Assembly (NCBI RefSeq): GCF_001447785.1
Contig: NW_015161420.1
Coordinates: 117,730-181,729, forward strand
Direction: 5' to 3'
DNA: 64,000 nucleotides
DNA from: Gekko japonicus
Lineage: Eukaryota
How positions within the stretch are numbered: position 1 is the stretch's first letter; each line of letters starts with the position of its first letter. The position numbers and the translations under genes were made by a program. A model generated the notes under the pieces. It was given only the letters and a program-made list of their open reading frames with translations, did no database searches and was not told the origin of the DNA. Below, piece by piece: positions 20,322 through 60,921 of the stretch.

Positions 20322-20368
20322 TATAAATAGAGGGCCAGCCGCCCTTCTTCCTCTTCTTTTGCCATTTT
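20322..20368 (+). promoter_or_regulatory. AZIN1: Core promoter: TATA box, pyrimidine-rich initiator and YY1-like GCCATTTT
   Basis: TATAAATA at 20322-20329; CTCTTCTTTT ~30 nt downstream (20351-20360); GCCATTTT at 20361-20368; NRF1-like CATGCGCA (~20148) and TGACG (20282) upstream. Confidence 0.7.
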
Positions 20369-20544
20369 CTCTCGCCCTCTCGCTGCGTCTGTTCCTGTCG
20401 CCGCCTCTCTGGCCACCCGGCTGCTGCTTCTTTCCCTCCCGGCTTTTTGCGCTCTTCTTCCACGCGGTTCTTCTTCTTTTTCGTGCTTGAGTACCGCAAC
20501 TGCAGCGCAAGGTTGCGCTCTTTCCCCGGTCCAGCCCGCAGCCT

Positions 20545-20607
20545 ATGGCCCTGGAAGGCGCCGCTGCCTCCTGTATTTCTGCTGTAGGTTCCCACATCCC
20601 TCTTTAA
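20545..20607 (+). CDS. AUG uORF1, 20 codons (MALEGAAASCISAVGSHIPL*)
   Basis: Only ATG in exon 1 (cctATGg); TAA at 20605-20607, 2 nt before the uCC AUU. Translation not shown. Confidence 0.45.
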   Translation: MALEGAAASCISAVGSHIPL

Positions 20608-20609
20608 AA

Positions 20610-20663
20610 ATTCCGCCTAAAAAGAGAAGACGATTTACCAAATCTTTCGGGCCGTTGTCCCAC
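20610..20663 (+). CDS. AZIN1: AZIN1 uCC (AUU-initiated uORF), part 1: IPPKKRRRFTKSFGPLSH
   Basis: AAA-ATT-C start context; phase-0 splice to 34191 keeps the frame; matches the vertebrate AZIN1 uCC as I recall it. Confidence 0.9.
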
Positions 20664-34190: not shown

Positions 34191-34295
34191 GGCAAACTCT
34201 CTGACCAGGTTTACAACTATCCAGAGGGTTTAGGAGAAGTGCTTTATCGAGAACAGTTCGACTTCAACGCTGAGCCACCTTGGGAACCTAGCTGA
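34191..34295 (+). CDS. AZIN1: AZIN1 uCC, part 2: GKLSDQVYNYPEGLGEVLYREQFDFNAEPPWEPS* (52 aa in total)
   Basis: In frame with the exon 1 part; PPW at 34275-34283; PS-stop at 34287-34295. Confidence 0.92.
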   Translation, partial: GKLSDQVYNYPEGLGEVLYREQFDFNAEPPWEPS

Positions 34296-34328
34296 TGATA
34301 GTAGGGTTCCATCTCCTAACTTGTCCAT
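34191..34328 (+). other. AZIN1: AZIN1 exon 2 (5' leader)
   Basis: Acceptor TTTTCTCTGCAG|G, donor CAT|GTAAGT. Confidence 0.9.
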
Positions 34329-37300: not shown

Positions 37301-40300
37301 CAAACCAGAGTCTTATTTGTCATCGGACTACAGCCCTAGAGTACTTTGATACACCTTTGAAGTTTTTATCTGGCAGTGTTCCTTACCTGAGTTCACACTG
37401 AGAAGAATCCAAGTTTACCTGAATCTCTTAAACAGTACAAAGAACTTATTCAAAAGAAGAGAGATCAGTTTCTGCTACTGTGTGACACTTTTTCCTCACA
37501 ATTCTTTGTCCTTGTTCTTGCCTAACCTTTCTTGTTTTAAATCAGTCTGTTGTGCTGGGGCCATATCCCACTGCCTAGAAGTAATTGGTACTTGTACTGG
37601 ATTTTAAGTACTATTTGTTATTTTGAGAGCCAAGTTTTGGCTGGCAAGTAGAGGGATTGAAATAAATACAACTGCTTGTGCTGCTAGCTGCTCACAGGAT
37701 CAGTTTGTTTGCTGCCTTCACATTGTCAGAGATGGTCTCTTATCTGAACAAAGCTGACTTCAAAGCAAAACTTTGGCGGTTGAGGCAAGTTTGAGAATCT
37801 ACTCAACTGTAAGAACTGCCTTTAGAATGGCAGGCAACCAGAAAGTTTATTTGTAATGGATGGCACAGCCTTTCTCATGTTTGTAGAGTGGCTAGGCATT
37901 TGGGCTTTTCTTTCATGGCAAGATCCGTCCTCCCAAGAACTGAGCACAGATATTTTTGATTAGTCATTCTCTATAAATTGAGCCTTAAGCCACTTCATAC
38001 TACCATTCATGAACAAATAATGGGTGTGCCTAAGCTCAGAAGAACCTTAACAACGCCCAGGTCGTGTGTGTGTGTGAGTTAAGAAGTGCCCTAATGTTCT
38101 GTTATAAAATGATTTATTGAGGAAAATGTCAATTAAACATAATGAGAGTGTATGGAACAGTGTTAATTAAATTGGCTTGTCTGGGTGTGTGTTTAAGTTC
38201 CCATTAAATCTGTTTCTGGCTCCTCTTTCCAGCTTCAGCTGCTGGCTATGAAACCAGCTACTTCAGCGGTTCTCCTATGGGCTCCCTGTTATGGGCGGGT
38301 GGTGCTCACGTGTTCTGTTTCGGAGGACAGGCTTAGATAGTTCTGCCTTTTGTTTTGATTTTAAGAATTTCTTTCCTTTAAGTAAAAACAACCGAGGCAG
38401 TTTACAGTGGAAGACGTTTAAAAGAGCAGTGTAACAATAAATGCACATGAGGTTTAACCACAAAATAAATTGAGTTTCATAACATTTATTTATATTTATT
38501 TATTTATATCTTCGATTTCTACCCCGCTCTAACCCCGAAGGGTCTCTGAGTGGCTTACAAGTTCCAAATTTATCCCTAGCTAAGGCCACATGTCTACAGG
38601 GGTTAGGGCAGCACTTCAGCCGGCAGATTAGGAACACAGTGGTTGAGGGCTCAGGGGGTCCCCCCTTTTCTTCTGGTTAGTGGACTCTAAAGGTTTAAGC
38701 TAGATATTTTTTTACACAAAGAAATCAATTAACTTAAGTAATAACTAACTAAATATATTTTCATTATATTTAACAGTAAGATTAATTTTGTATTAAATAC
38801 AGTAAAAGCTGAGTTAACAGGCATTCTAAACTGCTGATCCTGGAGGAGTGGGCACCTTCCACTGACTTGGACAGCTGTTGAGTGAGTGATGCCCTGGCTG
38901 AGAGCTGGCCAGGAAGCGCTCCCTGTTCCTCCGTTGCTTGTTCTTTCATGATGAGAGGAAGCAGAGGAAAGGCAGGGAATGCTTCTCAGCCATGGGCAAG
39001 CCCTGTTTTTGCTGCCGGCCTCCCTGTTCTTCTCTCCGCCACCTGCTTTCATGTAAGAGTGGGCAGTAGAGTCACTGCGAGTGTGGAGGGGGTGGTATTA
39101 GTGAATTTCCTGCATTGTGCAGGGGGTTGGACTAGATGACCCTGGAGGTCCCTTCCAACTCTTATGATTCTATGATTCTAGAGAGCAGGCAAGACTTCCA
39201 GAGGGCCATCTGAATTTCCAAGGAGAGGGTGTTCTAGAGCTTGGGGGGGGGGTACTGCTGTCAGCATGTTGAGAAGGCCAACCCCAGGTTCTTAAACTTT
39301 AGGCAGGTTCTCATGGGTAGAGGTGTTCCCTTGGATAACCTAGTCCAAGGCCATTAAGGACTTCAAAGGATAGCACAAGAGTTTTGAATTGGGACCCTGG
39401 AACATATTGGAAGCAAATTCTTATGAAGTGCTTGAGCAGTGAAAGTGCTGAATGAATGGTTAATAATAAAATACAAGTATGTTTCTTGTACTTATTTCTG
39501 TTATGTGATTGTAGTATAGGAAGTATTTGAAATATAAATAGCTAATCTTAAGGTAATAGGTCTGAAAAATGAACATTCTGAAGGAATGCTTCCAAAATAA
39601 CACTGGGCCAGCAAGCCATGGTGTGGGTGGGGGGGTGGGGTGGGGGAGCATATTTGGTCTTATTTCAGAACTTTTCATTGAGGAAGATTGGAAGGTGCCT
39701 TATAGGGCCACCCTGAGGAGAGTTACACCCTCCTGAGTGCACTTACATTAGTGGACTTAGAAAGGTGCACCTCTCCTTGGGATGGCACTGTAACAGCTTT
39801 ATACAAAAGGTCAGTAGCGAAAATACCGTAGTCACATAAGATTGTGATGACAAATCTTGTATCTAGAATATTCAATACAAAGCAAAACCTGTAGGGAGTT
39901 AGAACAATTCCAAAGTAGGGCCTGGTCTTAAGGTTTGCTTTGTCAATAGCCAAGCCGTTTCTGCTGGAATTTAAAGACTGCTCTATATGTTGATCATAGT
40001 TACGTAAAAGTCCTTCTGGGACTGGATCACTGCAGACTACACATTTTGAATATTCTCTCATAACAAAAAAACTTGTATCAGTAGGAGAAAAGTCAGTATA
40101 TTATGGGAATACTAAGTAAGAACTTGTGTCCCTGCTGTGCTAGTTGCTGCATCCAGTAGTGATCCATCTGTAATCCAACATGGTGTAGTCCCAGAAGACA
40201 GACTGATAATGTGGAACGTGTAGCTTGGCTCTAAATTTCAAGTCTTGGTTGGCCATTGTGTGAGACAGGGTACTGGCCTAGCTGGTCTGATCCAACAGGG

Positions 40301-40572: not shown

Positions 40573-40674
40573 ATGAAAGGATTTCTTGAGGATGCAAACT
40601 ACTCCATTGGCTTATTGGATGAAGGAGTGAATCTTGGAGATGTCATTGACAACTGCATTTATGAGCATACTCTT
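40573..40674 (+). CDS. AZIN1: AZIN1 coding exon 1 (exon 3 starts at 40477)
   Basis: [34 protein letters not shown]; donor GTAAGT; acceptor AAACAG at 40476. Confidence 0.95.
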
Positions 40675-43600
40675 GTAAGTATTCAGTTTTCAGTACCTAC
40701 TTTCACAGTTCATTTAATATTTATAAATGATATGTGTGTGTATATCTCATAACTGGGTTAAAATTATAACTGTATTGTTATGAAAATGGATATCAGTATT
40801 GGGGATACCAGTGGCCAAAGTGAGAAATATGTCCCCTGTAATTGTCAACTACTCATCATACTTCTTTTTGGAAAAAAGTTCAACTATATATAATTTCGTG
40901 TTTTGTAGACTGGCAAAAATACCTTTTTTGTTGGTGATCTGGGGAAGTTGACCAAGCAGCACATCCATTGGCAGAATGTTATGGCACGAGTAAAACCATT
41001 TTACAATGTAAAATGTAACTCTACTCCAGGTGTACTTGAGATTCTGGCAGCTCTTGGAACTGGGTTTGCATGTTCAAGTAAAGTGAGTATTTACTTTGTT
41101 TCTGCTTAGGATCTGAACTTCTCCAGTAAATAATATCTTTATGGAACATGTGTTGATGATAACAATTGCCATACAGAAGCATCTTAATTCCTGAAGTGTG
41201 ATATTTTGTGCCATATGTTATACCTAGTGGTCCAGTGTTTAAACTGGCTTACAGTTGTCCTTCTGACACCATTTAAGAAGCTTGTATCTGACTTTGAAGC
41301 TCTTATACTAGAAGACTTGAACTATCATACTTAAAGAGACTAGTATTCCACAGTGATCTCTAAGGTTGGCTAAGAATGCCCTTTTGCTAATACAGTTTGT
41401 ATTCTTTATTTATACATTAAATTATGTAAAAGTTGTTCTCAGTTTTTATTCCAATACTGTGCCCCCCTCCCAAAAAAAAAAGCTTTGGCATCTTTCAGTA
41501 ACCATTGGAAGCCCCCACTTTTGTGTTTAATTGGGTTTTTTACCTAAGGTGGAGATGTTAGCATTTTAAAAGTCCTGTATATGTTTAAAAAACAAACAGG
41601 TTTACAAAATGAAACTGTCTTAAATTGCTTTTGGTATTATAAGCTATATTTGGAAAACTACAATTTCTCACTGTCTTAGCACAATTTCTAAGTTTTTTTT
41701 AAAGCTTTAACTGTTTTTGTAAATAGTTTACTTTTGTGTATTTCAGACAGAAATGGCATTGATTCAAGATTTGGGCATTTCTTCTAAAAATATCATATTC
41801 ACTAATCCTTGCAAGCAAGCTTCTCAGATAAAATATGCAGCAAAAATTGGAGTAAACATTTTGTCATGTGACAGTGAATTGGAACTAAAGAAAATCGCTA
41901 GGAATAATTCAAATGCGAAGTAAGTAAAAATGAATGTATTTGTTTCACTTACTGCTCTGGGAATTTAATTTTGGCTACAGTTATATAACGGACTGCAAAC
42001 TATGAAGGGATACTTTTCTGGAGTACTTTTGTATGCAGTATTCTCATTTAGATGTTTTAACGTTGTTCTTTAAAACCTGAGAATTTGTACTTTAATGTGG
42101 AAACACCAATTTTTTCAGGTGTGCTCTGGCATCATAACTCTAGTCTGTTACATTTGAAGGTTCTGTTAACTTTCATCAGTATTATTTTATCAAAAGAGCT
42201 TAAAACTTATTTGACTGGGAGACTGTTACTGCCAAGGTCATGTGAGCAAGACAGCATTAATTCCTTAACAAATAATGCTCCATTTTCTGCCTGGGATTCT
42301 GGCATCATGATGGGATGTATGACATAACTTGTTCGGCTCACCATCTCTGAAAATTGCCTTAAAAGTCTATTAAGCTGGTCCAGACTGTTTCAGCGAGAAC
42401 AAACCCCAGTATATGTCTGTAACACGTGCCAGTATACTGCATGGCAGTCTAGTAGTGCTATACACCAGCAGGGCATGTCAAACTTCTAAATTACTGGGGT
42501 AGATTCAGCGTGGAAAGAGAAGTAAGAGTGTGGTGATGGGTTACCTGGAATCCATCTGGTTATTTGTAAGTACGTGCTCCTTTGAACTAGTGCAATACAA
42601 AGGGTATGTTTTGACCCCTGGTTTGCTTAGTTGCTCACAGTGCTGGCAAGGTTTTGAGAGCAGTTGTTCCTCTAGGAATTAGTGTTGAAGTTCCACATTC
42701 AACTCCTCTGTATTTGTGTGGAAGGGTGGCACTCCTTTCCTGGGTGGATGGCCAAGAAAATGCAGCTCTTTCCTATCTTCTCCCACACTAGTGATATTTA
42801 CTGCAATCCAAAGCTTTACGAGCTTTTGTAAAAGGAAATTGTAGACAAGTTCTTGTGTGTCAGCATGACTGTCACCTATCTATAGTAGTATGAACTTGGA
42901 AATGTAGGTAGTAGCTTTGGAAAAGATAAAATTTCTCTCTTCTCTTCCCCCTATTCAAAAATCTTTACACTGTGGGAAAGTCATTCTTAACTGTGTGCAT
43001 AAGACTGTTGGTGGTCTGTGGAATCCAGTAGTTTTGTGAGTGTTACCACTCTCCAAAGTAAGTTTACCCTAAATGTTATGCAGGTGTTTTGAAGTTTGAG
43101 TGAAGGAATATTATTCATGAAGAACAATATTGGCAATTGATGGAGGCACAAGGTTGAAATAAATGATCTAGAATGAGGCCAAAGACCTGTCATGCTTTCA
43201 CTCAGCTATTCCTGTTAAATGTTGTTACCTTCTGGTAAGACTTTTTATCCTCTAAAGAATCCACCAGACAAGCTGTAGTTACTAGAGGAAGAAACGTGAT
43301 CCACAAGTCCTATCACATTGAAACTAATTGTTAGGATGAATGCTTGAAAAAAAATACTTGCTTGTAAGAAGGACTAAATACTTTCTCTGGCAAATAGTTA
43401 TATTTTAAGCTCCCCAATCATATTTGAACAAGGTTTTTAAAAAGCTGAATGTCACTCAAGGAACTTATGACCATGACTTCATCTTAGGTAATGTATTTTT
43501 ATTACAGCATTCAACAGACTTTCTGCTACCACAGAGTCTTTAGCTGCTGCATTTCCAAACCTCTTTTCCTTTTTTTCCCCTGACTCCATGTTTTAGGCCC

Positions 43601-46600
43601 TAATTGCTAGTTTTCTCTCTGTACAGGATTGTTTTTATTAGGTTCACTTGACTCAGCCACCGACGGAGTTGGAGTGTTGGCAACATAATCAACATGCTTC
43701 TGACAGTCTTCAGGCTTCACATGTGCTGATGCTGGTGTAAACCAACTGTGCCCCAATCATCTTCCCCTTCTCTTAGGCTCTTACTCCATATTGCCACAGA
43801 AGACAATGGAGGTGAAGAGATGAACATGAAGTTTGGCACCACCCTGAAGAACTGTCGGCATCTCATGGAATGTGCTAAGGAGCTGAATGTCCAAATAGTT
43901 GGTGTTAAGTGAGTAACCTTGTCACCTCTCCTTTGCCTTCCCTTCTGTTGTGCTCACCTGATGGATATGAAATATGAAATAGGAAGGCTATGTGATGTTG
44001 CAATGTTCATGCTATAAAAGTGCTAGTTTAATGGACCATCAAAATAGCTGTTCTTCATAAGTCATATTTCATGCATGTTTTTGAAACGGTGTTAAATACT
44101 TTGCCTTATGGTTGTCCAAATGTTACATCCAAGTAAAACAGGCAGAGAGTATAGGATACTAATCTAGGCTGAACTATTTGTGGGTACCTCACCAATTAGA
44201 TAATTCTTATTAAATGTTTATTCCGTAGACCATATAAAAGACTGCAGATTTAAGAAAAAAGTCATGTTGTTTCATTGCCCCATAAAATGGACCCTTTAAA
44301 GTTATTATCTGATTGGACTTCAAGTTCAGCTGATATAACAATTTTTCCAAATAAAAAATAAGCAATGAACTTATAGAAATATGCTAATAAAATATGGCAG
44401 GTTACTTTTTCAGAGTATAGCCATCTGTTTTATTTATAGCTTTTCCTAATACCACCTATTTAATTCCCTTCTGCAATAATTTAGATTTGTCGACTTCCTG
44501 TGATTTAGGTCCTGTAATCTTGGAAGTATGAATCTAGGCAAAGAACTAGGACCTCTTGTCTGGACATGGGTCCTTTAACAGGCAGTTTCTTGGCAAAAAC
44601 TATATTCAGTGGGAACTGGAGCATTCAACTGAATTACTTTTCATTTCTGATGCATCATTTCTATAAAACACATTTCTGTTAACTTTTTACCTATCCTGTT
44701 CCTCAGGAAAAGGAGGCATTTATGCCCTGCTCTTCTCCCTATCTAGAAACTCACAGCCTACTGCAGAAATACAACTCAGACAAAAAAAAAAGAAACAAAC
44801 ATCTGCAATATGATGTTCCATCAACCTGGGAAGCTGCTGGTTTCAGTTGTATTGCTCCTGCAGGGACTCTGGCAGCCAAGCACAGTATAAGAGGAAAGAG
44901 GGCCATGAGCCTTTTGGCTTGCACTTCTAGCTACACTCCTGCAATAGGGGGACGACAGGAGATCCAGCCAGATCTCCTTCAGTTGGCAAAAATAGCCAAC
45001 ATTCCTCTCCTGATTTGAATTTTTGGGGAGAGGCTTTTGAGCGTAGGAATCTACATGGGCTATTCTAGCACATGGATGATCTTTGGAGTAAAATCATAAG
45101 TTTTTGAAGTATCATCTGTCTGCTTTATTTTTCAGCCATTCACATGCCTACCACAGCTTGCTTTTGTTAACTAGTAGCTAGCATAACTTTTAGTTACATA
45201 TGCATGGTTGAGAAAAAAAGGAAACAAATGGTTTCTTGTGACACTGACATACAGTGATGTGTTCTTCAAAAACGTCTGCTTGGAAAAGCAGTATTGCCTT
45301 GAGTCTCTCCATCTTCTCCAGGTTTCCTGTTAACTTAACTAGAATAATTATCTTGGTAGCACTAAAACTGTTTGTTTGTTTTTCAGATTTCATGTTTCAA
45401 ACTACTGCAAGGAACCTCAGATATACAAACATGCTATTTCTGATGCTCGCTGTGTGTTTGACATGGCTGTAAGTAAATTATTGCACATGTATATACTTCA
45501 GTGCTCATGTTAACTGTTACAGTGCCGAGAAATATTTTGATCTTGATGGCTTGCTACTGTGTACTAATCTGCATCCCTGTACAAATTCACCCTGAAAGTA
45601 AAATGGATACTTTTTTGTGTATGTGCTGAATTTAGCTATGATTCAGTTGTAATTTAATGTTTAAGATTCCTTCAGGTAACTTTTTACCAGATCATTGCTT
45701 AAATTGGAATGCTTACCAGATCATTGCTTAAATTCAGTGTTTAAGTGCATACTTCTATGGAAAACAAATCAGGCATCAGATACATTCTAAACTTTTTGCA
45801 CTTCTATTTTAGGAAGAATTTGGCTTTACTATGAATATGTTGAACATTGGTGGGGGCTTCACAGATAATGAACGTGATCTGGAAGAGGTATAAAAGCTTT
45901 TTCTGAATTTTTCTGTTGACCTGGTATGCTTGGCCTGTCACTTTCAATAAGTATGTAAGGGTTGTGTGTACAGTACATATATAAAAGTTGAAGATGTTGC
46001 CTGCTGTAGTACAAATAAATGGTGCCACAGAGCCTTTCAGTAAAACAAGTATATTTGAAATTGACTCTGTCCTAAATTGTAGTTCAGCTAGGAAGACTTG
46101 AATGTTCACTATTGTACTTGAGTGTAGCTTGTAGGGCCACAGACTGTATTAAAATCCAGTGTATTGGATTTCAGTATTAATTTAAAATATTAATATGCTG
46201 CTGCTTCAGAGACCTGCGTGAAGCAGCTCACAAAGTAAAAAAAAGATAAAATCATAATATAAAATCAAACCATTAAAAACCAGCCAATAAAATCCTAGGG
46301 TATAAAACATCTAGCACTGAAAAGAGGCTCATGACTGTTGTTCAGCCAGAAGCAGATTGTAAAAAATTAAAAGTATCAAATCCCTACTTAAAAGCCTGGG
46401 TAAAAAGAAATGTTCTGATTTTGTGCCTAAAAGAGAGTAGGACAGGCATAAGACAGGATTACACAGGCGAGGGGCCAGCACTGAAAAAGCCTTGTCCCTG
46501 GCTGTTTCATGGCGAAGGTGGGGATACAGAGAGCTGGGCCTGTGGAGAGGATCTCAACTGGTGAGTTGAAGAATACAGGAAGTAGTCCTTTAAGTACCCT

Positions 46601-49600: not shown

Positions 49601-52600
49601 CTCAAAGGGGGAGGACTTCTTCTAGAGAAGCTGTGCTGCAGTTTCCAAAACATGCTTGCATTTATTTGATGTCTTCTGAAAGACATCTTAAAGTAAGTTA
49701 CTGCTTACCTAATGTTTGACAGTTTTAAATTTTTTATAAGTAAGATATTACTTGGGTAAAATTGAAACTGTGTTAGGGAATGTCCCCACTTTTCCCTTCA
49801 TTTACTGCCTTGGCAAGGATTAAGACATTTATGTGGAGGAAACCATTTACATTGCAAAGAGAGGTTTGATTCAGCAAATAGCCAGGATGAAAATTTAGAA
49901 ATTAATTTTTAAGCTGTAAATTGCTAGTTCTGGATTTGACAGAGGAATTGTGAAGACAGGCATCCCGCTAAAATGTCTCTTTTCTGTTTTCTAGGTTAAT
50001 CACATTGTCAGTCCACTGCTCGATATCTACTTTCCTGAAGAATCTGGAATAAATGTGGTTGCAGAGCCTGGATGCTATTACGTGTCATCTGCGTTTACTC
50101 TTGCAGTTAATGTTATTGCCAAGAAAGCTGCTCAGTGTGATAAACATCTTCTCTCTGAAAGTAAGCAAGACATTTTTGTACATTTAAGTCTGTACAGATA
50201 CAGAACAGTACCTTGGATCCTGGCAGAAACAAATCCTTTTATCAAATAGCTTGGGTATTTCTTAGTGAGACTCGTGTCTTATACTTCATCGTTGGTTAGA
50301 AAACTATGGATCCTGTTACATGTTCTGCCCTTCGTGTAATTGTGGGCTTGCTGAATCATTTGCAAACTGACTTATCTATGGAAGGATCTGTGGAAGTGAT
50401 GCCCAGAGGGTGGGTGGTTCCTGGAGCCAGCCTGGTGCTCAGAAGCTTGTGTGTGTTGGCTTCACTGTTGTTGTTGTTGTTGTTGTTTTGCATTTTGTTT
50501 TATTGAAGAACTGAATTACAAATAAAGATTACAATTTTAGCTAGTAATATGTACATAATTTTTTATAGATGTACATATACATTTTTGATTGCTTTAATAA
50601 TCTACAATAAAAGCTTTCCCCCCCTTTCTTCTATCTCTTCAGTTCTGTCTTCTCAGTATTAACCTGTGCTGCATTTTAAGTATTTTAAGCAACACTTTTC
50701 AACACAACCACAAAATTGAAACAAAATACACAGGCTCAAAACCAATCATAGTACTTCTTCCTCTATTCTTCTTTGAACCTGAGTTCAGTCCAAGGGAGGC
50801 CCGTGGGCCGAAAGGACTTAACCTTTCACCCAAGGACTGTTGAAGGGAGGGCACATACCCACGCTCGCTGCTACCCGGTCGCCCTGTTTCAGGTATAACA
50901 AGGGCAGTCCTCAGAGAAAAACATGAATGCTTGACGTTTAAAACGAGTCTATATGTTTATCCGGCTCTTCTCGGTCTTCAGAGCAACAGATTCTGGTTGT
51001 TTTAAACAGAGTGGGAGGTGATCTTGCGTTCCTTTTGTTGTCTGTCTTCTCCAGTAGTTCACCTGGTGATTTATTTAAAGCAGCCAGCAACTGCTCTCCA
51101 GATGCCTGGTCAAAAGCTGTATAAATCACCTGCTTATATTCCACACAGAGATTGCCTGTGTTCAGCCAATGATACTTGATGCCTAACTCCTGGAGTTTTG
51201 TTGTAATTGGTTTCAACTCCCTTCTTATCTTGAGGAATTCTGGTGGCAGATCAGGGAACACCTGTATCTTTACGTCTTGATATTCCAAACCATTTTTTTC
51301 TCTTGCCTGTGTTAATATCCGTTGTCTGGTTCTGAAGTCCTTGAAAACTACAACAATGTCTCTATAATAAACTGAAGCATCTTCTGTTTCCTCTCGTTGT
51401 CTGTCCACCCGATAAGCCTTTTGAATGAAAGTAACCATAATTTTTTTAGCTCTGTTCCTTCTTCAACATTTGGTTTAAATCCTCTGAATTTCAGATGCAA
51501 CTCACGGGAACGATAATCCAAAGAAAGAATGCGTTCTCTAGCCCATAAATCAGGGGAGCTGCAGGCAGTTTGTTTCTCCAACGCCGATACCTTCTTTAAA
51601 GCATTATCAGCAGTTTGCTTAAACTTTTCTTCTAATTCATCCATACGCTGGAATGCTGGTTTTAGCATTTCCACAATGTCCATTCTTAACTCTTGTCATT
51701 GTTTAGCTAAGGCTTCTAAAAGAAAAGTTGTTGTAAGAGTAGTCCCTTCCTTATCAGTATTTCCTAAGTCCATTGTGGAGGAGGTTCCAGCTTCAGCTTG
51801 AGCAAAAAAAACTCTGTCAAAGAAGGTATATTATCCATTTTTTGCTTTGCCTTCTGCTTGCCCTTCTTATCTTACCTTGGAGGCATGTTTTCAGAATCTC
51901 AAATAAATTCAAAAGGGTTGAAAATAATAAATTAAGAGCGAACAGACGGCGAGCTGCGGGTAATGGCCACCAACCACCACTGGTCGTAGCCCCGCTCCCC
52001 GGCTTCACTGTTTGAACGGTCTACTTGAATAGTCTTTGCTGTTCTGAACTGGTGAGGAGGCAGAAGGGAAATGTCTTGACTCCTCTGGGGTTCAGGGACC
52101 ATATGTTGGTTTTCCCAGAAACATGCTGCTTCAAGGTGAAAAGTTTGCTTGTGGGCTTATACACTGAATGTTTAACCTCCGAGGAAGCTGGATTTGCTCT
52201 TACTCAGTGTTGGAAGTGTACTTTCACTGTGCCTGTTTTAAGATGATATTAAATGAGAAAATGTTTGTCTGTTTCTTATTAGGTGCATTGTGTCTGTTGT
52301 TCATGTGTGTGTTTTCACATGCTTCTGAAAAAATTGATCTTTCTTTTAAATGGAAATCTACTGTGAAACTGTTATTAATATATATATATGTTTTTTAACA
52401 GTGGAACAAAGGAGCAAGGATCCAGTCTTCATGTATTACATGAATGATGGTGTCTATGGTTCTTTTGCAAGCAAATTATCTGAGAATCTGAATGCTATTC
52501 CAGAGGTTCACAAGGTGAGAGTCCCTTAGTATATTGTGCAGCAGTTAAGGGCACACTTCCAAAATAGCTGACTTTGTAGTACTTTGTGTTTGGGCTACAT

Positions 52601-54804
52601 GTGAAGCAAGCAATTCAGGATTTTTTCAGGTGGGTAGATGTGTTGGTCTGAAGTAACAGAGCGAGATTTTTGAGTCCATTAGCACCTTAAAGACTTCTAG
52701 AGTATAAGCTTTTCTGAGTTAAAACTTATCTGAATTTTTATTCTGGAAAACATATACCCTGGCAGTCTTGTTAGTCTCTAAGGTGCTAGTGGACTGGAAT
52801 CTTCCAGTTCATAAATTGTGGCTTAAAGTAAATAATTTTTCATTTCTCTAGTAGCACTCCTAAACCTAAATCTAATCGCTAGAACTGTTCTTTATGCAGA
52901 AATACAAGGAAGATGAGCCTCTGTTTGCAAGCAGCCTTTGGGGTCCATCCTGTGATGAGCTTGATCAAATTGTAGAAAACTGTCTTCTCCCTGAGCTGAA
53001 TATTGGAGATTGGCTACTCTTTGACAATATGGGATCTGGTACCTTGGGTGAACAGTCTGCTTTCAATGACTTACAAAGGCCACCAGTTTATTACATAATG
53101 TCATTCGGTGACTGGTAAGTTTGCATTATTTTGTACTTGGGCATGTCTTAAAGCACATGAGCAGGCTGTCTACTAAGTTGCTTTCAGCAGGCTGCCCCAC
53201 AGTCAGAACATAATTTTAATGAGCCTTGTAAGTCTATATTTAAAATATATTTGGCGTAAGCTTAGGCTATGGGGAGTTGTCCACGTGCCAGAAGGAGGAG
53301 TGCTGGCAATGCATCAGTTCTTTTCTCTTTCGCTTGGGCAGAATTCTAAACTTTGCCCGGAAGGCCAGTATGCGCAGATGTCTAAATCTAGAGGCTGGCT
53401 TGCTCCGGGCAGTCCTGTCATAAAAAGCGGCAGTACTTGGTTGCACATGCTGCTTTCCTGACCTTTAACAACTCGTGCACAAGACCACAATAGTGGAAGA
53501 ATTACTGGTCACTTTGCTTGAACCAAGTTGTCACTTGGCCAGGGCATATAACTACTTGCTATGTAAAACTGTTCATAAAATTAATGAGCATGTGGATCTT
53601 TGCTGTTTAGTGGGAAAACCACACTGATCTGAATGTGTAGATTGGTCACTGCTGAGTGGTGCCTCAGCATAAGTCTGTATTATTATTATTATTAGTAGTA
53701 GTAGGTGTGTGTGTGTGTCTGGAGGGTCATGGTTGACTTCAGGCAATCCCTAATGGGTTGGACATTCAGAGAGTTCACTTGCTATTGCCTGCCCCTGCGT
53801 CCTGACCCTAGTATTCCTTGGAGGTCTCCCTTCCAATTACTTGCCAGGGTTGGCCCTGCTTAGCTTCCCAGATCTGACAAGATCGGGCTTCTCTGGGCTA
53901 TCCAGGTCAGGGCCCTCAGCATATGTCTGGTAATGAATAGATGCTTGCGTTGCTGACTAGAAGTGTGTGTCTGTGCACACGCTCTCCCAAGTAATCATTG
54001 TTTTCTTACTTTCCAAATCTTGTTTGGATTTTTTATTGCATCAGTTACTTGGTTTAAGTGGGAAATGCTTCTTGGCTGTAATATTTTCACCCCATTGAAC
54101 GTACAGTGAAATCCTCTGTGACTGCATCCCTTGCTCAAGGAAATTCCAGATAAGAGGAGGTTATCTCTGTTTTAACACCATACAGTTTTCGACTTGCAGA
54201 GCAGGTTTATATAGAAAAGCTGAACCTTGCCCTCCTCCCCCCACTTTTCCTAGTGCTTGAAGCACTTTAATGCAGAAGTGAACGTGGGAGGAAAATCCAC
54301 AAGGGTAAGGGGCAAGAAAGGAATAGGTTTTAGCTCCCTTTGTTCACAAGATTCAGCTCCTGTTTAATAATGGCCTCCTGTCTATTAGGGTGTTTAAAAC
54401 TTCTTATGGAAGTTAACAAAACTTCCAACTTCTTGCAAAATCCCTACCCTGTATTCCAGGCTTCCTTTGGACTGTAATAGAAGAGCTATATGGAACCTGT
54501 ATTTAATTAAATGTGGCTAACACAGATTTGATTGCAGGAATTGGGTTGCAAATTTCAGATTAGCATGGGAAGGCATGAATGACTGCATTTGCTTGAACAT
54601 CAGGAAATACGATTAAATGTTAAAATGTTTTATTATTCTGCTGTATTCTGGTGTGTGGCTAAACTGTTGTGCGTTTTGTTTTTTCCACTCAGGTGTGAGA
54701 TGCAAGATGCTGGCTTTACCTCTGACACACTGATGAAGAATTTCTTCTTTGTGCCTTCTTGCATTCAGCTGAGCCCTGAAGACAGATTTTCTATTGAAGC
54801 TTAA
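40573..54804 (+). CDS. AZIN1: Antizyme inhibitor 1, 447 aa, 10 coding exons
   Basis: join(40573-40674,40909-41082,41747-41919,43777-43908,45387-45468,45813-45887,49995-50160,52402-52514,52900-53114,54693-54804) = 1344 nt, all GT-AG, frame open. [18 protein letters not shown]...PFYNVKCN...WGPSCDELD...EDRFSIEA* is an ODC fold with AZIN1-type substitutions. Confidence 0.97.
40909..41082 (+). CDS. AZIN1: AZIN1 coding exon 2
   Basis: [13 protein letters not shown]...[30 protein letters not shown]; TTGTAG / GTGAGT. Confidence 0.95.
41747..41919 (+). CDS. AZIN1: AZIN1 coding exon 3
   Basis: [10 protein letters not shown]...[17 protein letters not shown]...[12 protein letters not shown]; TTTCAG / GTAAGT. 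Confidence 0.95.
43777..43908 (+). CDS. AZIN1: AZIN1 coding exon 4
   Basis: [43 protein letters not shown]; TCTTAG / GTGAGT. Confidence 0.95.
45387..45468 (+). CDS. AZIN1: AZIN1 coding exon 5
   Basis: [27 protein letters not shown]; TTTCAG / GTAAGT. Confidence 0.95.
45813..45887 (+). CDS. AZIN1: AZIN1 coding exon 6
   Basis: [25 protein letters not shown]; TTTTAG / GTATAA. Confidence 0.93.
46180..46960 (-). mobile_element. Decayed L2-type LINE (resumes after 47880)
   Basis: ORF 46637-46864 contains ...[13 protein letters not shown]..., a degenerate SRLDYC region; similar to 10581-11285. Confidence 0.55.
46966..47870 (+). mobile_element. 5'-truncated LINE (ORF2 C-terminus with CCHC zinc knuckle; RTE-X-like, clade uncertain) nested in the L2 copy
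   Basis: ORF 47180-47692 ...[26 protein letters not shown]...HILLRCPHY; AATAAA at ~47842; (GA)n tail; 9-bp TSD GACTAACAT (46957-46965, 47871-47879). Confidence 0.8.
48727..48917. mobile_element. Penelope-like terminal inverted-repeat remnant forming a ~70-bp stem
   Basis: AGAACAAAGTTTGAATCCAGTGGCACCTTTAAGACCAACAAAGTTTTATTCAAGGT... pairs with ...ACCTTGAATAAAACTTTGCTGGTCTCAAAGGTGCTACTGGACTCAAACTTTGTTCT. Confidence 0.75.
49995..50160 (+). CDS. AZIN1: AZIN1 coding exon 7
   Basis: [44 protein letters not shown]...; TTCTAG / GTAAGC. Confidence 0.95.
50470..52000 (-). mobile_element. ORF1-only L1-derived element (HAL1-like), 1531 bp, TSD-flanked
   Basis: Starts GGGGAGCGGGGC; disrupted ORF1 51886->50938 (...LHLKFRGF..., [32 protein letters not shown]); AATAAA at 50504-50499; (CAA)n tail; 12-bp TSD GGCTTCACTGTT (50458-50469, 52001-52012). 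Confidence 0.85.
52402..52514 (+). CDS. AZIN1: AZIN1 coding exon 8
   Basis: [37 protein letters not shown]; TAACAG / GTGAGA. Confidence 0.95.
52625..52800. mobile_element. Penelope-like inverted-repeat remnant, diverged
   Basis: TTCAGGTGGGTAGA start shared with 48727; arms AGTCCATTAGCACCTTAAAGACT / AGTCTCTAAGGTGCTAGTGGACT. Confidence 0.65.
52900..53114 (+). CDS. AZIN1: AZIN1 coding exon 9 (exon 11)
   Basis: [45 protein letters not shown]...; ATGCAG / GTAAGT. Confidence 0.96.
53705..53915 (-). mobile_element. 5S rRNA-derived SINE
   Basis: GGAGGTCTCCCTTCCAATTACT...CCCTGCTTAGCTTCCCAGATCTGACAAGATCGGGC is the reverse of a 5S-like head; (TG)n tail. Confidence 0.7.
54693..54804 (+). CDS. AZIN1: AZIN1 last coding exon (exon 12)
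   Basis: [36 protein letters not shown]; acceptor TTTTCCACTCAG. Confidence 0.96.
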
Positions 54805-60869: not shown

Positions 60870-60921
60870 NNNNNNNNNNNNNNNNNNNNNNNNNNNNNNN
60901 NNNNNNNNNNNNNNNNNNNNN
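60870..60921. other. Assembly gap (52 N)
   Basis: Run of N. Confidence 1.

Follow-up and report, generated by a model that had tools for sequence, protein, structure and literature searches.

The AZIN1 gene of Gekko japonicus carries a strong spare 3′ splice site (AG at 43626) ahead of its coding exon 4, together with an intron end that matches gene models from a bird and a frog, and this combination makes it likely that the gene contains a reptile version of the polyamine-controlled splice switch of mouse. More specifically, we propose that the acceptor at 43626 and the conserved block at 43707–43776 may form an unproductive-splicing switch that acts through nonsense-mediated decay (NMD) and is favoured by high polyamines as in the mouse Azin1-X isoform, a reading to which we give about even weight for and against. 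Use of the site, its action through NMD and its steering by polyamines are what we infer from the DNA sequence. All features lie on the forward strand, and positions are those of the window, the whole stretch of 64,000 nucleotides that was analysed.

The gene extends from an AUU-initiated upstream ORF, present and intact, through to the stop codon (20610–54804), with an open frame and GT-AG boundaries at all introns. Its ten coding exons (40573–40674, 40909–41082, 41747–41919, 43777–43908, 45387–45468, 45813–45887, 49995–50160, 52402–52514, 52900–53114 and 54693–54804) encode a product of 447 aa with domains PF02784 and PF00278, whose top PDB matches are antizyme inhibitor 1 (126 bits, vs 87 bits for ODC) and which matches the AZIN1 proteins of Paroedura picta and Eublepharis at 95% and 93% respectively. 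On these sequence grounds the host gene is an AZIN1 orthologue, bearing out the name given to it in an earlier sequence-only reading. Mouse exon 2, cassette exon 3 and the ATG-containing exon 4 measure 138, 161 and 198 nt (PMC13078869, supplement); gecko exons of 138 and 197 nt correspond to the first and last of these, and this agreement in length makes coding exon 4 (43777–43908, normal acceptor 43776) the equivalent of mouse exon 7. Skipping of coding exon 4 is in frame and leaves 403 aa. The exon is absent from AZIN1 models of a bat and a deer (P0034 and P0035).

The candidate upstream 3′ splice site (43598–43626) comprises the branch heptamer CCCTAAT at 43598–43604, with its putative branch A at 43603 lying 23 nt ahead of the AG, a pyrimidine tract at 43611–43620 and CAG at 43624–43626, and it precedes the normal acceptor by 150 nt; the second strong acceptor that the sequence-only reading had described, with CCCTAAT, tract and CAG|G, was thus recovered motif by motif. 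In order to rank it, all 2221 intronic AGs in the 32.6 kb of AZIN1 introns were scored with an approximate 3′ splice-site matrix, its frequencies not being those of a dedicated tool. AG 43626 scored 7.38 and ranked fifth, a value reached by five of the 2221 AGs including itself (0.15 per kb), it exceeded seven of the ten real AZIN1 acceptors, and among the five top-scoring AGs it alone has a YTRAY motif 15–45 nt upstream. Of the nine other acceptors, one likewise has a decoy of at least this strength less than 250 nt away (45321, lacking a branch motif, 65 nt before 45386). Use of 43626 is predicted to add a 150-nt poison 5′ extension (43627–43776) to coding exon 4, and within that segment there is no donor-like site matching at least 6 of the 9 consensus positions, the real donors of the gene scoring 5–8.

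Joining the phase-2 donor of coding exon 3 (41747–41919), which is common to all isoforms considered, to 43627 gives K-I-V-F-I-R-F-T-TGA, the stop lying at 43649–43651, upstream of six junctions and 908 nt before the last of them, so that 157 of 447 aa (35%) of AZIN1 would be kept; on this point the sequence-only reading was exact. Its use of the stop codon as support for a poison site adds nothing, because a premature stop also arises from all 15 upstream AGs at coding exon 4 and from 119 of 120 across eight coding acceptors, the null expectation, and this line of evidence was therefore rejected. A third AG proposed in the same reading (43595–43596) would give a 180-nt extension and does lead to an immediate stop (K-P-TAA, 43601–43603, 151 aa), but as an acceptor it is ordinary: its score of 2.08 is equalled or exceeded by 107 of the 2221 intronic AGs, no branch motif lies 15–45 nt upstream, and the CCTGAC noted nearby sits 3′ of the pyrimidine run rather than before it, just 13 nt from the AG. 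It was rejected as a genuine splice site and is probably not used.

Conservation was assessed at the protein level, through two mis-predicted gene models that read through the intron end. The songbird model P0072 is identical to the gecko translation of 43707–43777 at 21 of 22 residues and the bullfrog model P0073 to that of 43719–43777 at 17 of 18, the matched stretch being the last 58–70 bases of the intron, ending at acceptor 43776. When the last ten residues were used as an anchor, only 43776 among the 9081 AGs of the window reached 9 or 10 matches, with runners-up at 6 (bird) and 5 (frog). The proteins compared were the 74 named ones of 95 matches, the 21 unnamed being left out (13 of them from a search for short truncated isoforms); when 61 divergent segments in 45 of these 74 proteins were set against 18 gecko intron ends, the bird and frog models were the only clear winners over shuffles (54 vs 43 and 43 vs 34). 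Most of the remaining divergent segments represent a variable loop rather than read-through, and two mink models enter coding exon 4 by other splices and are uninformative on this intron end. Indels between species in the block are not multiples of three, which argues against coding constraint and suggests instead that tetrapods share a conserved non-coding element here. Tandem repeats were absent from 41900–45400.

The sequence-only reading had called for a check of intronic conservation over 43575–43776, and such conservation was found for the 3′ part, whereas upstream of 43707 no significant match was obtained. The similarity of the frog model to 43620–43690 was reached by 120 of 1000 shuffles, and a bird similarity at about 43586–43660 (17 of 1000 shuffles) was discarded: its opening residue derives from exon 2 of the bird gene, and without that residue the figure rose to 303 of 2000. 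Stops upstream of 43707 are impassable for gene models, which limits any test of conservation at 43598–43626.

The same switch could instead operate through another acceptor, the conserved poison site being the weak AG at 43712–43713 and 43626 a gecko-specific extra or silent decoy. Its 63-nt extension would read K-L-H-M-C-TGA (43727–43729), giving a product of 154 aa with the stop 830 nt before the last junction, and no further AG lies between 43713 and 43776. The bird match spans this AG and its stop falls within the part of the block common to bird and frog, but the start of the bird match at 43707 was probably fixed by the in-frame stop just upstream, the frog match begins only at 43719, and the bird residues force neither the AG nor the stop (present in 1/6 and 1/4 of synonymous encodings respectively). 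The site also scores poorly (1.46, reached by 133 of the 2221 intronic AGs) and has a poor branch context. A mouse NMD isoform is reportedly 154 aa long, equal to the product from 43713; but a single additional T downstream of 43626 would bring the other product to 154 aa as well, so that this length does not discriminate between the two sites. We consider this version unlikely.

We regard it as more improbable still that the block serves the normal acceptor alone, through a distant branch point and the inclusion of the exon vs its in-frame skipping or intron detention, with 43626 an unused chance decoy. The best branch-point candidate for acceptor 43776, A 43729 in the motif at 43724–43730, does lie inside the block, 47 nt upstream, and we infer that this acceptor uses it; the in-frame skip, the bat and deer models and the frequency of comparably strong decoys, one of which precedes 45386, would also fit. 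However, near-identity over some 55 nt between frog and gecko is more than a constitutive branch point with its tract usually needs, and the supposed decoy at 43626 has a well-placed branch point and lies in the intron implicated in mouse. It is very improbable that the block owes its conservation to a function outside splicing, be it as an enhancer, as part of an internal promoter, or as a structured or small RNA. Putative alternative transcription start sites are mentioned for mouse Azin1 in the part of PMC6313458 consulted, but a comparison of 41900–45400 with Rfam yielded nothing up to E = 1, the block is no more stably folded than its shuffled versions (z 0.88 and 0.52), eight shuffled blocks form long-range duplexes of −51.4 to −63.9 that bracket its own best one (−60.1), and it stops exactly at the acceptor.

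Under the proposed switch at 43626, choice of the upstream acceptor would lengthen the mRNA by 150 nt that include a stop codon, and the stop-bearing AZIN1 transcript would be degraded by NMD. High polyamines would probably shift splicing towards 43626, as in mouse Azin1-X, most likely because U2 snRNP would be contested by two branch points, the good one at 43603 and that of the normal acceptor, far off at 43729, and the conserved block would serve as the cis-element. Lowered AZIN1 would free antizyme and thereby reduce ODC and polyamine uptake, a negative feedback additional to that of the AUU upstream ORF. The frog–amniote split dates to about 350 million years ago. A bolder version, in which the block would be a polyamine-responsive element of that age and a compact two-branch-point switch by which the shielding of SF3a/b by polyamines would lead to AZIN1 mRNA decay in all tetrapods, is tentative and, in our estimation, somewhat unlikely.

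Azin1-X, said to have been described by Murakami and colleagues in 2014, is reportedly a 5′ extension of mouse exon 7. On that label the gecko candidate affects the same gene and, by numbering, the same exon, and in both a premature stop removes about two-thirds of the protein (157 or 154 of 447 aa kept in gecko). For mouse, isoform and polyamine response have been measured, whereas the gecko counterpart is known from sequence alone. Gene, exon number and truncation length thus fit the suggestion that this is the reptile equivalent, whilst the ordinary AG at 43596 and the uninformative stop lend it nothing and significant matches did not extend as far upstream as 43626. The mechanism itself is already described in mouse and hence is not new. 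SSAT-X is a cassette exon, favoured when polyamines are low. The gecko candidate, by contrast, takes the form of an alternative 3′ splice site whose added segment lacks a donor, and it would be favoured when they are high, although both concern polyamine-pathway genes under alternative splicing coupled to NMD (predicted in gecko). The accessible portions of the sources describe polyamine-regulated unproductive splicing of SAT1/SSAT-X (Hyvonen et al., 2006, via PMC7846877 and PMC12999471) and, in mouse, a premature-stop variant that loses nearly two-thirds of the protein and is raised by polyamines and lowered by DFMO (PMC4458265). The latter source, in the same portion, also describes the AUU-initiated upstream conserved coding region of AZIN1 (Ivanov et al., 2008), whose feedback has the same direction but works at translation initiation, whereas the candidate switch would work at splicing. 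From what is accessible of PMC7347940, conserved poison elements and NMD-inducing alternative 3′ splice sites, such as that of SYNGAP1, likewise combine an upstream acceptor, a stop-bearing segment and conserved non-coding sequence; the gecko candidate differs in its presumed metabolite signal and in conservation limited to the 3′ 58–70 nt.

The human catalogue of non-productive events in PMC7347940 (NMD-active tissues, at least 3% usage), as far as accessible, has a row for AZIN1-AS1 only and none for AZIN1. AZIN1 was likewise not matched in the part of the PMC12999471 supplements covered, which excludes the splicing tables, or in the supplements of PMC6547761 and PMC7726792 (minus one scanned file), and among the rows listed in the PMC13078869 supplement it appears only with a 5′UTR cassette event. 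The portions consulted of PMC9105363, PMC11364396, PMC11202255, PMC10762828, PMC5009743 and PMC4511134 contain nothing on this splicing event, and no paper outside the subscription literature was found to deal with Azin1-X beyond mammals or with how far this intron is conserved. The match of the gecko intron end to bird and frog goes unmentioned in the accessible text on Azin1-X (PMC4458265, PMC6313458 and PMC7846877).

Evidence for the mouse isoform comes mostly from a single paper, and that accessible text gives no account of the isoform's cis-element; the 58–70 nt shared by frog, gecko and bird point to sequence worth mutating. Polyamines affect splicing via the SF3a/b branch-point machinery of U2 snRNP, according to the part of a 2026 study available to us (PMC12999471), and gecko AZIN1 offers a concrete test case for that finding. 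If the bolder version of the proposal is true, the block would give metabolite-controlled 3′ splice-site choice a cis-element that is both defined and portable, and antisense agents could be aimed at it to tune AZIN1. The match across frog, gecko and bird suggests that splicing feedback on AZIN1 is of ancient origin and no mere peculiarity of rodents.

Ten GT-AG exons between 40573 and 54804 joined into an open frame of 447 aa, ornithine decarboxylase (ODC)-family domains were present in all four exons tested, the nearest solved structures were of antizyme inhibitor 1 (126 bits vs. 87 for ODC) and the nearest named proteins, compared over exon 3, were AZIN1 of the geckos Paroedura (95%) and Eublepharis (93%). 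Given these matches and an intact AUU-initiated upstream ORF (+ strand, 20610–20663 and 34191–34304; 52 codons, ending in a P-P-W motif region and terminated by four tandem stop codons), the gene is gecko AZIN1. Translation of 5'UTR exon 1 (20358–20582, +) matched the read-through at the N terminus of an AZIN1-like gene model from a whale (P0047, E 1.6e-7), which suggests, at the level of sequence, that the leader upstream of this ORF is conserved. The top-scoring non-annotated acceptor in the gene opens 38233–38381 (+), with a weak donor 149 nt on and three ATGs inside; this may be the counterpart of the 147–168 nt 5'UTR cassette exon that mouse and human, according to the available portion of PMC13078869, carry after exon 2 and before the ATG exon. 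By eye, ~50600–52010 (probably minus strand), in the intron after coding exon 7, resembled a decayed LINE-type retrotransposon fragment, and a 52-N assembly gap (60870–60921) lies outside AZIN1.

The supplement of PMC13078869, in its available part, gives mouse Azin1 exon 2, the 5'UTR cassette and the ATG exon as 138, 161 and 198 nt. The gecko counterparts of exon 2 and the ATG exon measure 138 and 197 nt, so coding exon 4 (43777–43908, +) corresponds to mouse exon 7. This is the exon which we take to be extended in Azin1-X, the polyamine-regulated NMD isoform of mouse. Gecko coding exon 4 is 132 nt, one codon less than in most orthologues and the same in two other geckos; skipping it would keep the frame (403 aa), and the AZIN1 models of a bat (P0034) and a deer (P0035) are without it. 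Where A-to-I editing recodes the human protein (S367G), the gecko encodes Asn (AAC, 52978–52980, +). Of 36 named orthologues in which the motif was readable, 29 likewise have Asn, four Ser, two His and one Lys, so this recoding cannot be general.

The sequence-only reading had proposed that coding exon 4 can be extended upstream of its normal acceptor, 43776, from acceptors at 43626 or 43596, and its splice motifs were all present at the positions it gave. Spliced from the phase-2 donor 41919, acceptor 43626 gives 157 aa and the predicted stop (TGA, 43649–43651), which precedes the last of the six downstream junctions by 908 nt; acceptor 43596 gives 151 aa. The stop itself is uninformative, since 119 of 120 upstream AGs at eight coding acceptors also yield one, and 43596 proved ordinary (107 of 2221 intronic AGs score as high). 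On an approximate splice-site matrix, 43626 ranked fifth of the 2221, above seven of the ten real acceptors, and alone among the five top-scoring AGs had a branch motif. Its elements follow one another in canonical order: the branch A at −23, then, 7 nt on, an AG too close to it, the tract and CAG. Sites this strong occur at 0.15 per kb, a chance of a few percent, on score alone, within ~250 nt of a given acceptor. One other intron held a comparable chance decoy, lacking a branch motif (45297–45321, +; 65 nt upstream of the coding exon 5 acceptor, scoring 8.07 vs. 4.43 for the real one). No internal donor matched at least 6 of 9 consensus positions in the 150-nt extension, which would therefore be a 5' exon extension and not a cassette.

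Conservation was sought at the protein level, with a query of 16 in-frame intron codons followed by coding exon 4, which gave 64 matches, 55 of them named (unnamed matches, 21 of 95, were excluded from every count). In six named models coding exon 4 is not preceded by the usual end of exon 3: four reach it by other splices (a marmot duplication, a tree shrew and two mink) and two, from the songbird Oxylabes (P0072) and the bullfrog Aquarana (P0073), were mis-predictions running through the intron end. Allowing for a frame change, P0072 agreed with the gecko translation of 43707–43777 in 21 of 22 residues; P0073 agreed with that of 43719–43777 in 17 of 18. Because the query favoured read-through matches and pyrimidine tracts translate alike, controls were run. 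With the last ten residues as anchor, 43776 was the only AG of 9081 on both strands with 9 or 10 identities, the runner-up having 6 or 5, also among ~300 pyrimidine-rich AGs; of 61 divergent segments (45 of 74 named proteins) compared with gecko intron ends, only P0072 and P0073 clearly exceeded shuffles. From 43719 the block spans 58 nt in gecko; counted in residues, it comes to 53 nt in P0072 and P0073. These non-triplet indels argue that the constraint is on nucleotides, not protein.

The expected intronic conservation thus held for 43707–43776, in a comparison of one bird and one frog model with no mammal intron end among the models, but neither matched gecko beyond chance upstream of 43707, so that 43626 is only a candidate for the conserved acceptor. 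The lack of match may have no other cause than stop codons, at which a gene model has to break off. We regard the predicted splice feature as real and probably functional, and the intron end as probably the gecko counterpart of Azin1-X by one acceptor or the other; for 43626 as that acceptor the case is evenly balanced. Use of the weak AG 43713 within the block (63-nt extension, TGA 43727–43729) is rather unlikely. It would give 154 aa, presumably the length of a mouse NMD isoform, which would fit this site; one T more after 43626, however, would produce that length too. That the block, which includes the best branch candidate of 43776 (A 43729), serves the normal acceptor only is less probable again. 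A non-splicing role is improbable. The region of the extension does not fold unusually, and it yielded neither an Rfam match nor a repeat nor a long-range pairing partner.

Azin1-X carries a premature stop, loses almost two-thirds of the protein and is raised by polyamines (Murakami et al., 2014, as cited in PMC4458265); the available portions of PMC6313458 and PMC7846877 accord, in less detail. No account of a counterpart outside mammals, or of this intron being conserved, appeared in the literature searched. The accessible part of the human non-productive splicing catalogue PMC7347940 has no AZIN1 event, which counts only weakly against the Azin1-X reading since the catalogue covers NMD-active tissues at a 3% threshold. 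Polyamine depletion shifts splicing via SF3a/b of U2 snRNP, according to the available portion of PMC12999471, where AZIN1 is absent from the main text. While sites, stops and the conserved block are established on sequence, we infer that U2 snRNP would have two branch points to choose from, 43603 and the distant 43729, and that the upstream site would be favoured when polyamines are high; NMD would then degrade the extended mRNA, AZIN1 would drop, and freed antizyme would decrease ODC and uptake. A product escaping decay would retain the antizyme-binding region (residues 117–140 in the available part of PMC10762828). The proposal of a reptile equivalent of Azin1-X thus survives as a likely further case of a mechanism already known from mouse, with 43626 as its candidate acceptor; what the gecko adds is the frog–bird–gecko match, which pinpoints a candidate cis-element.
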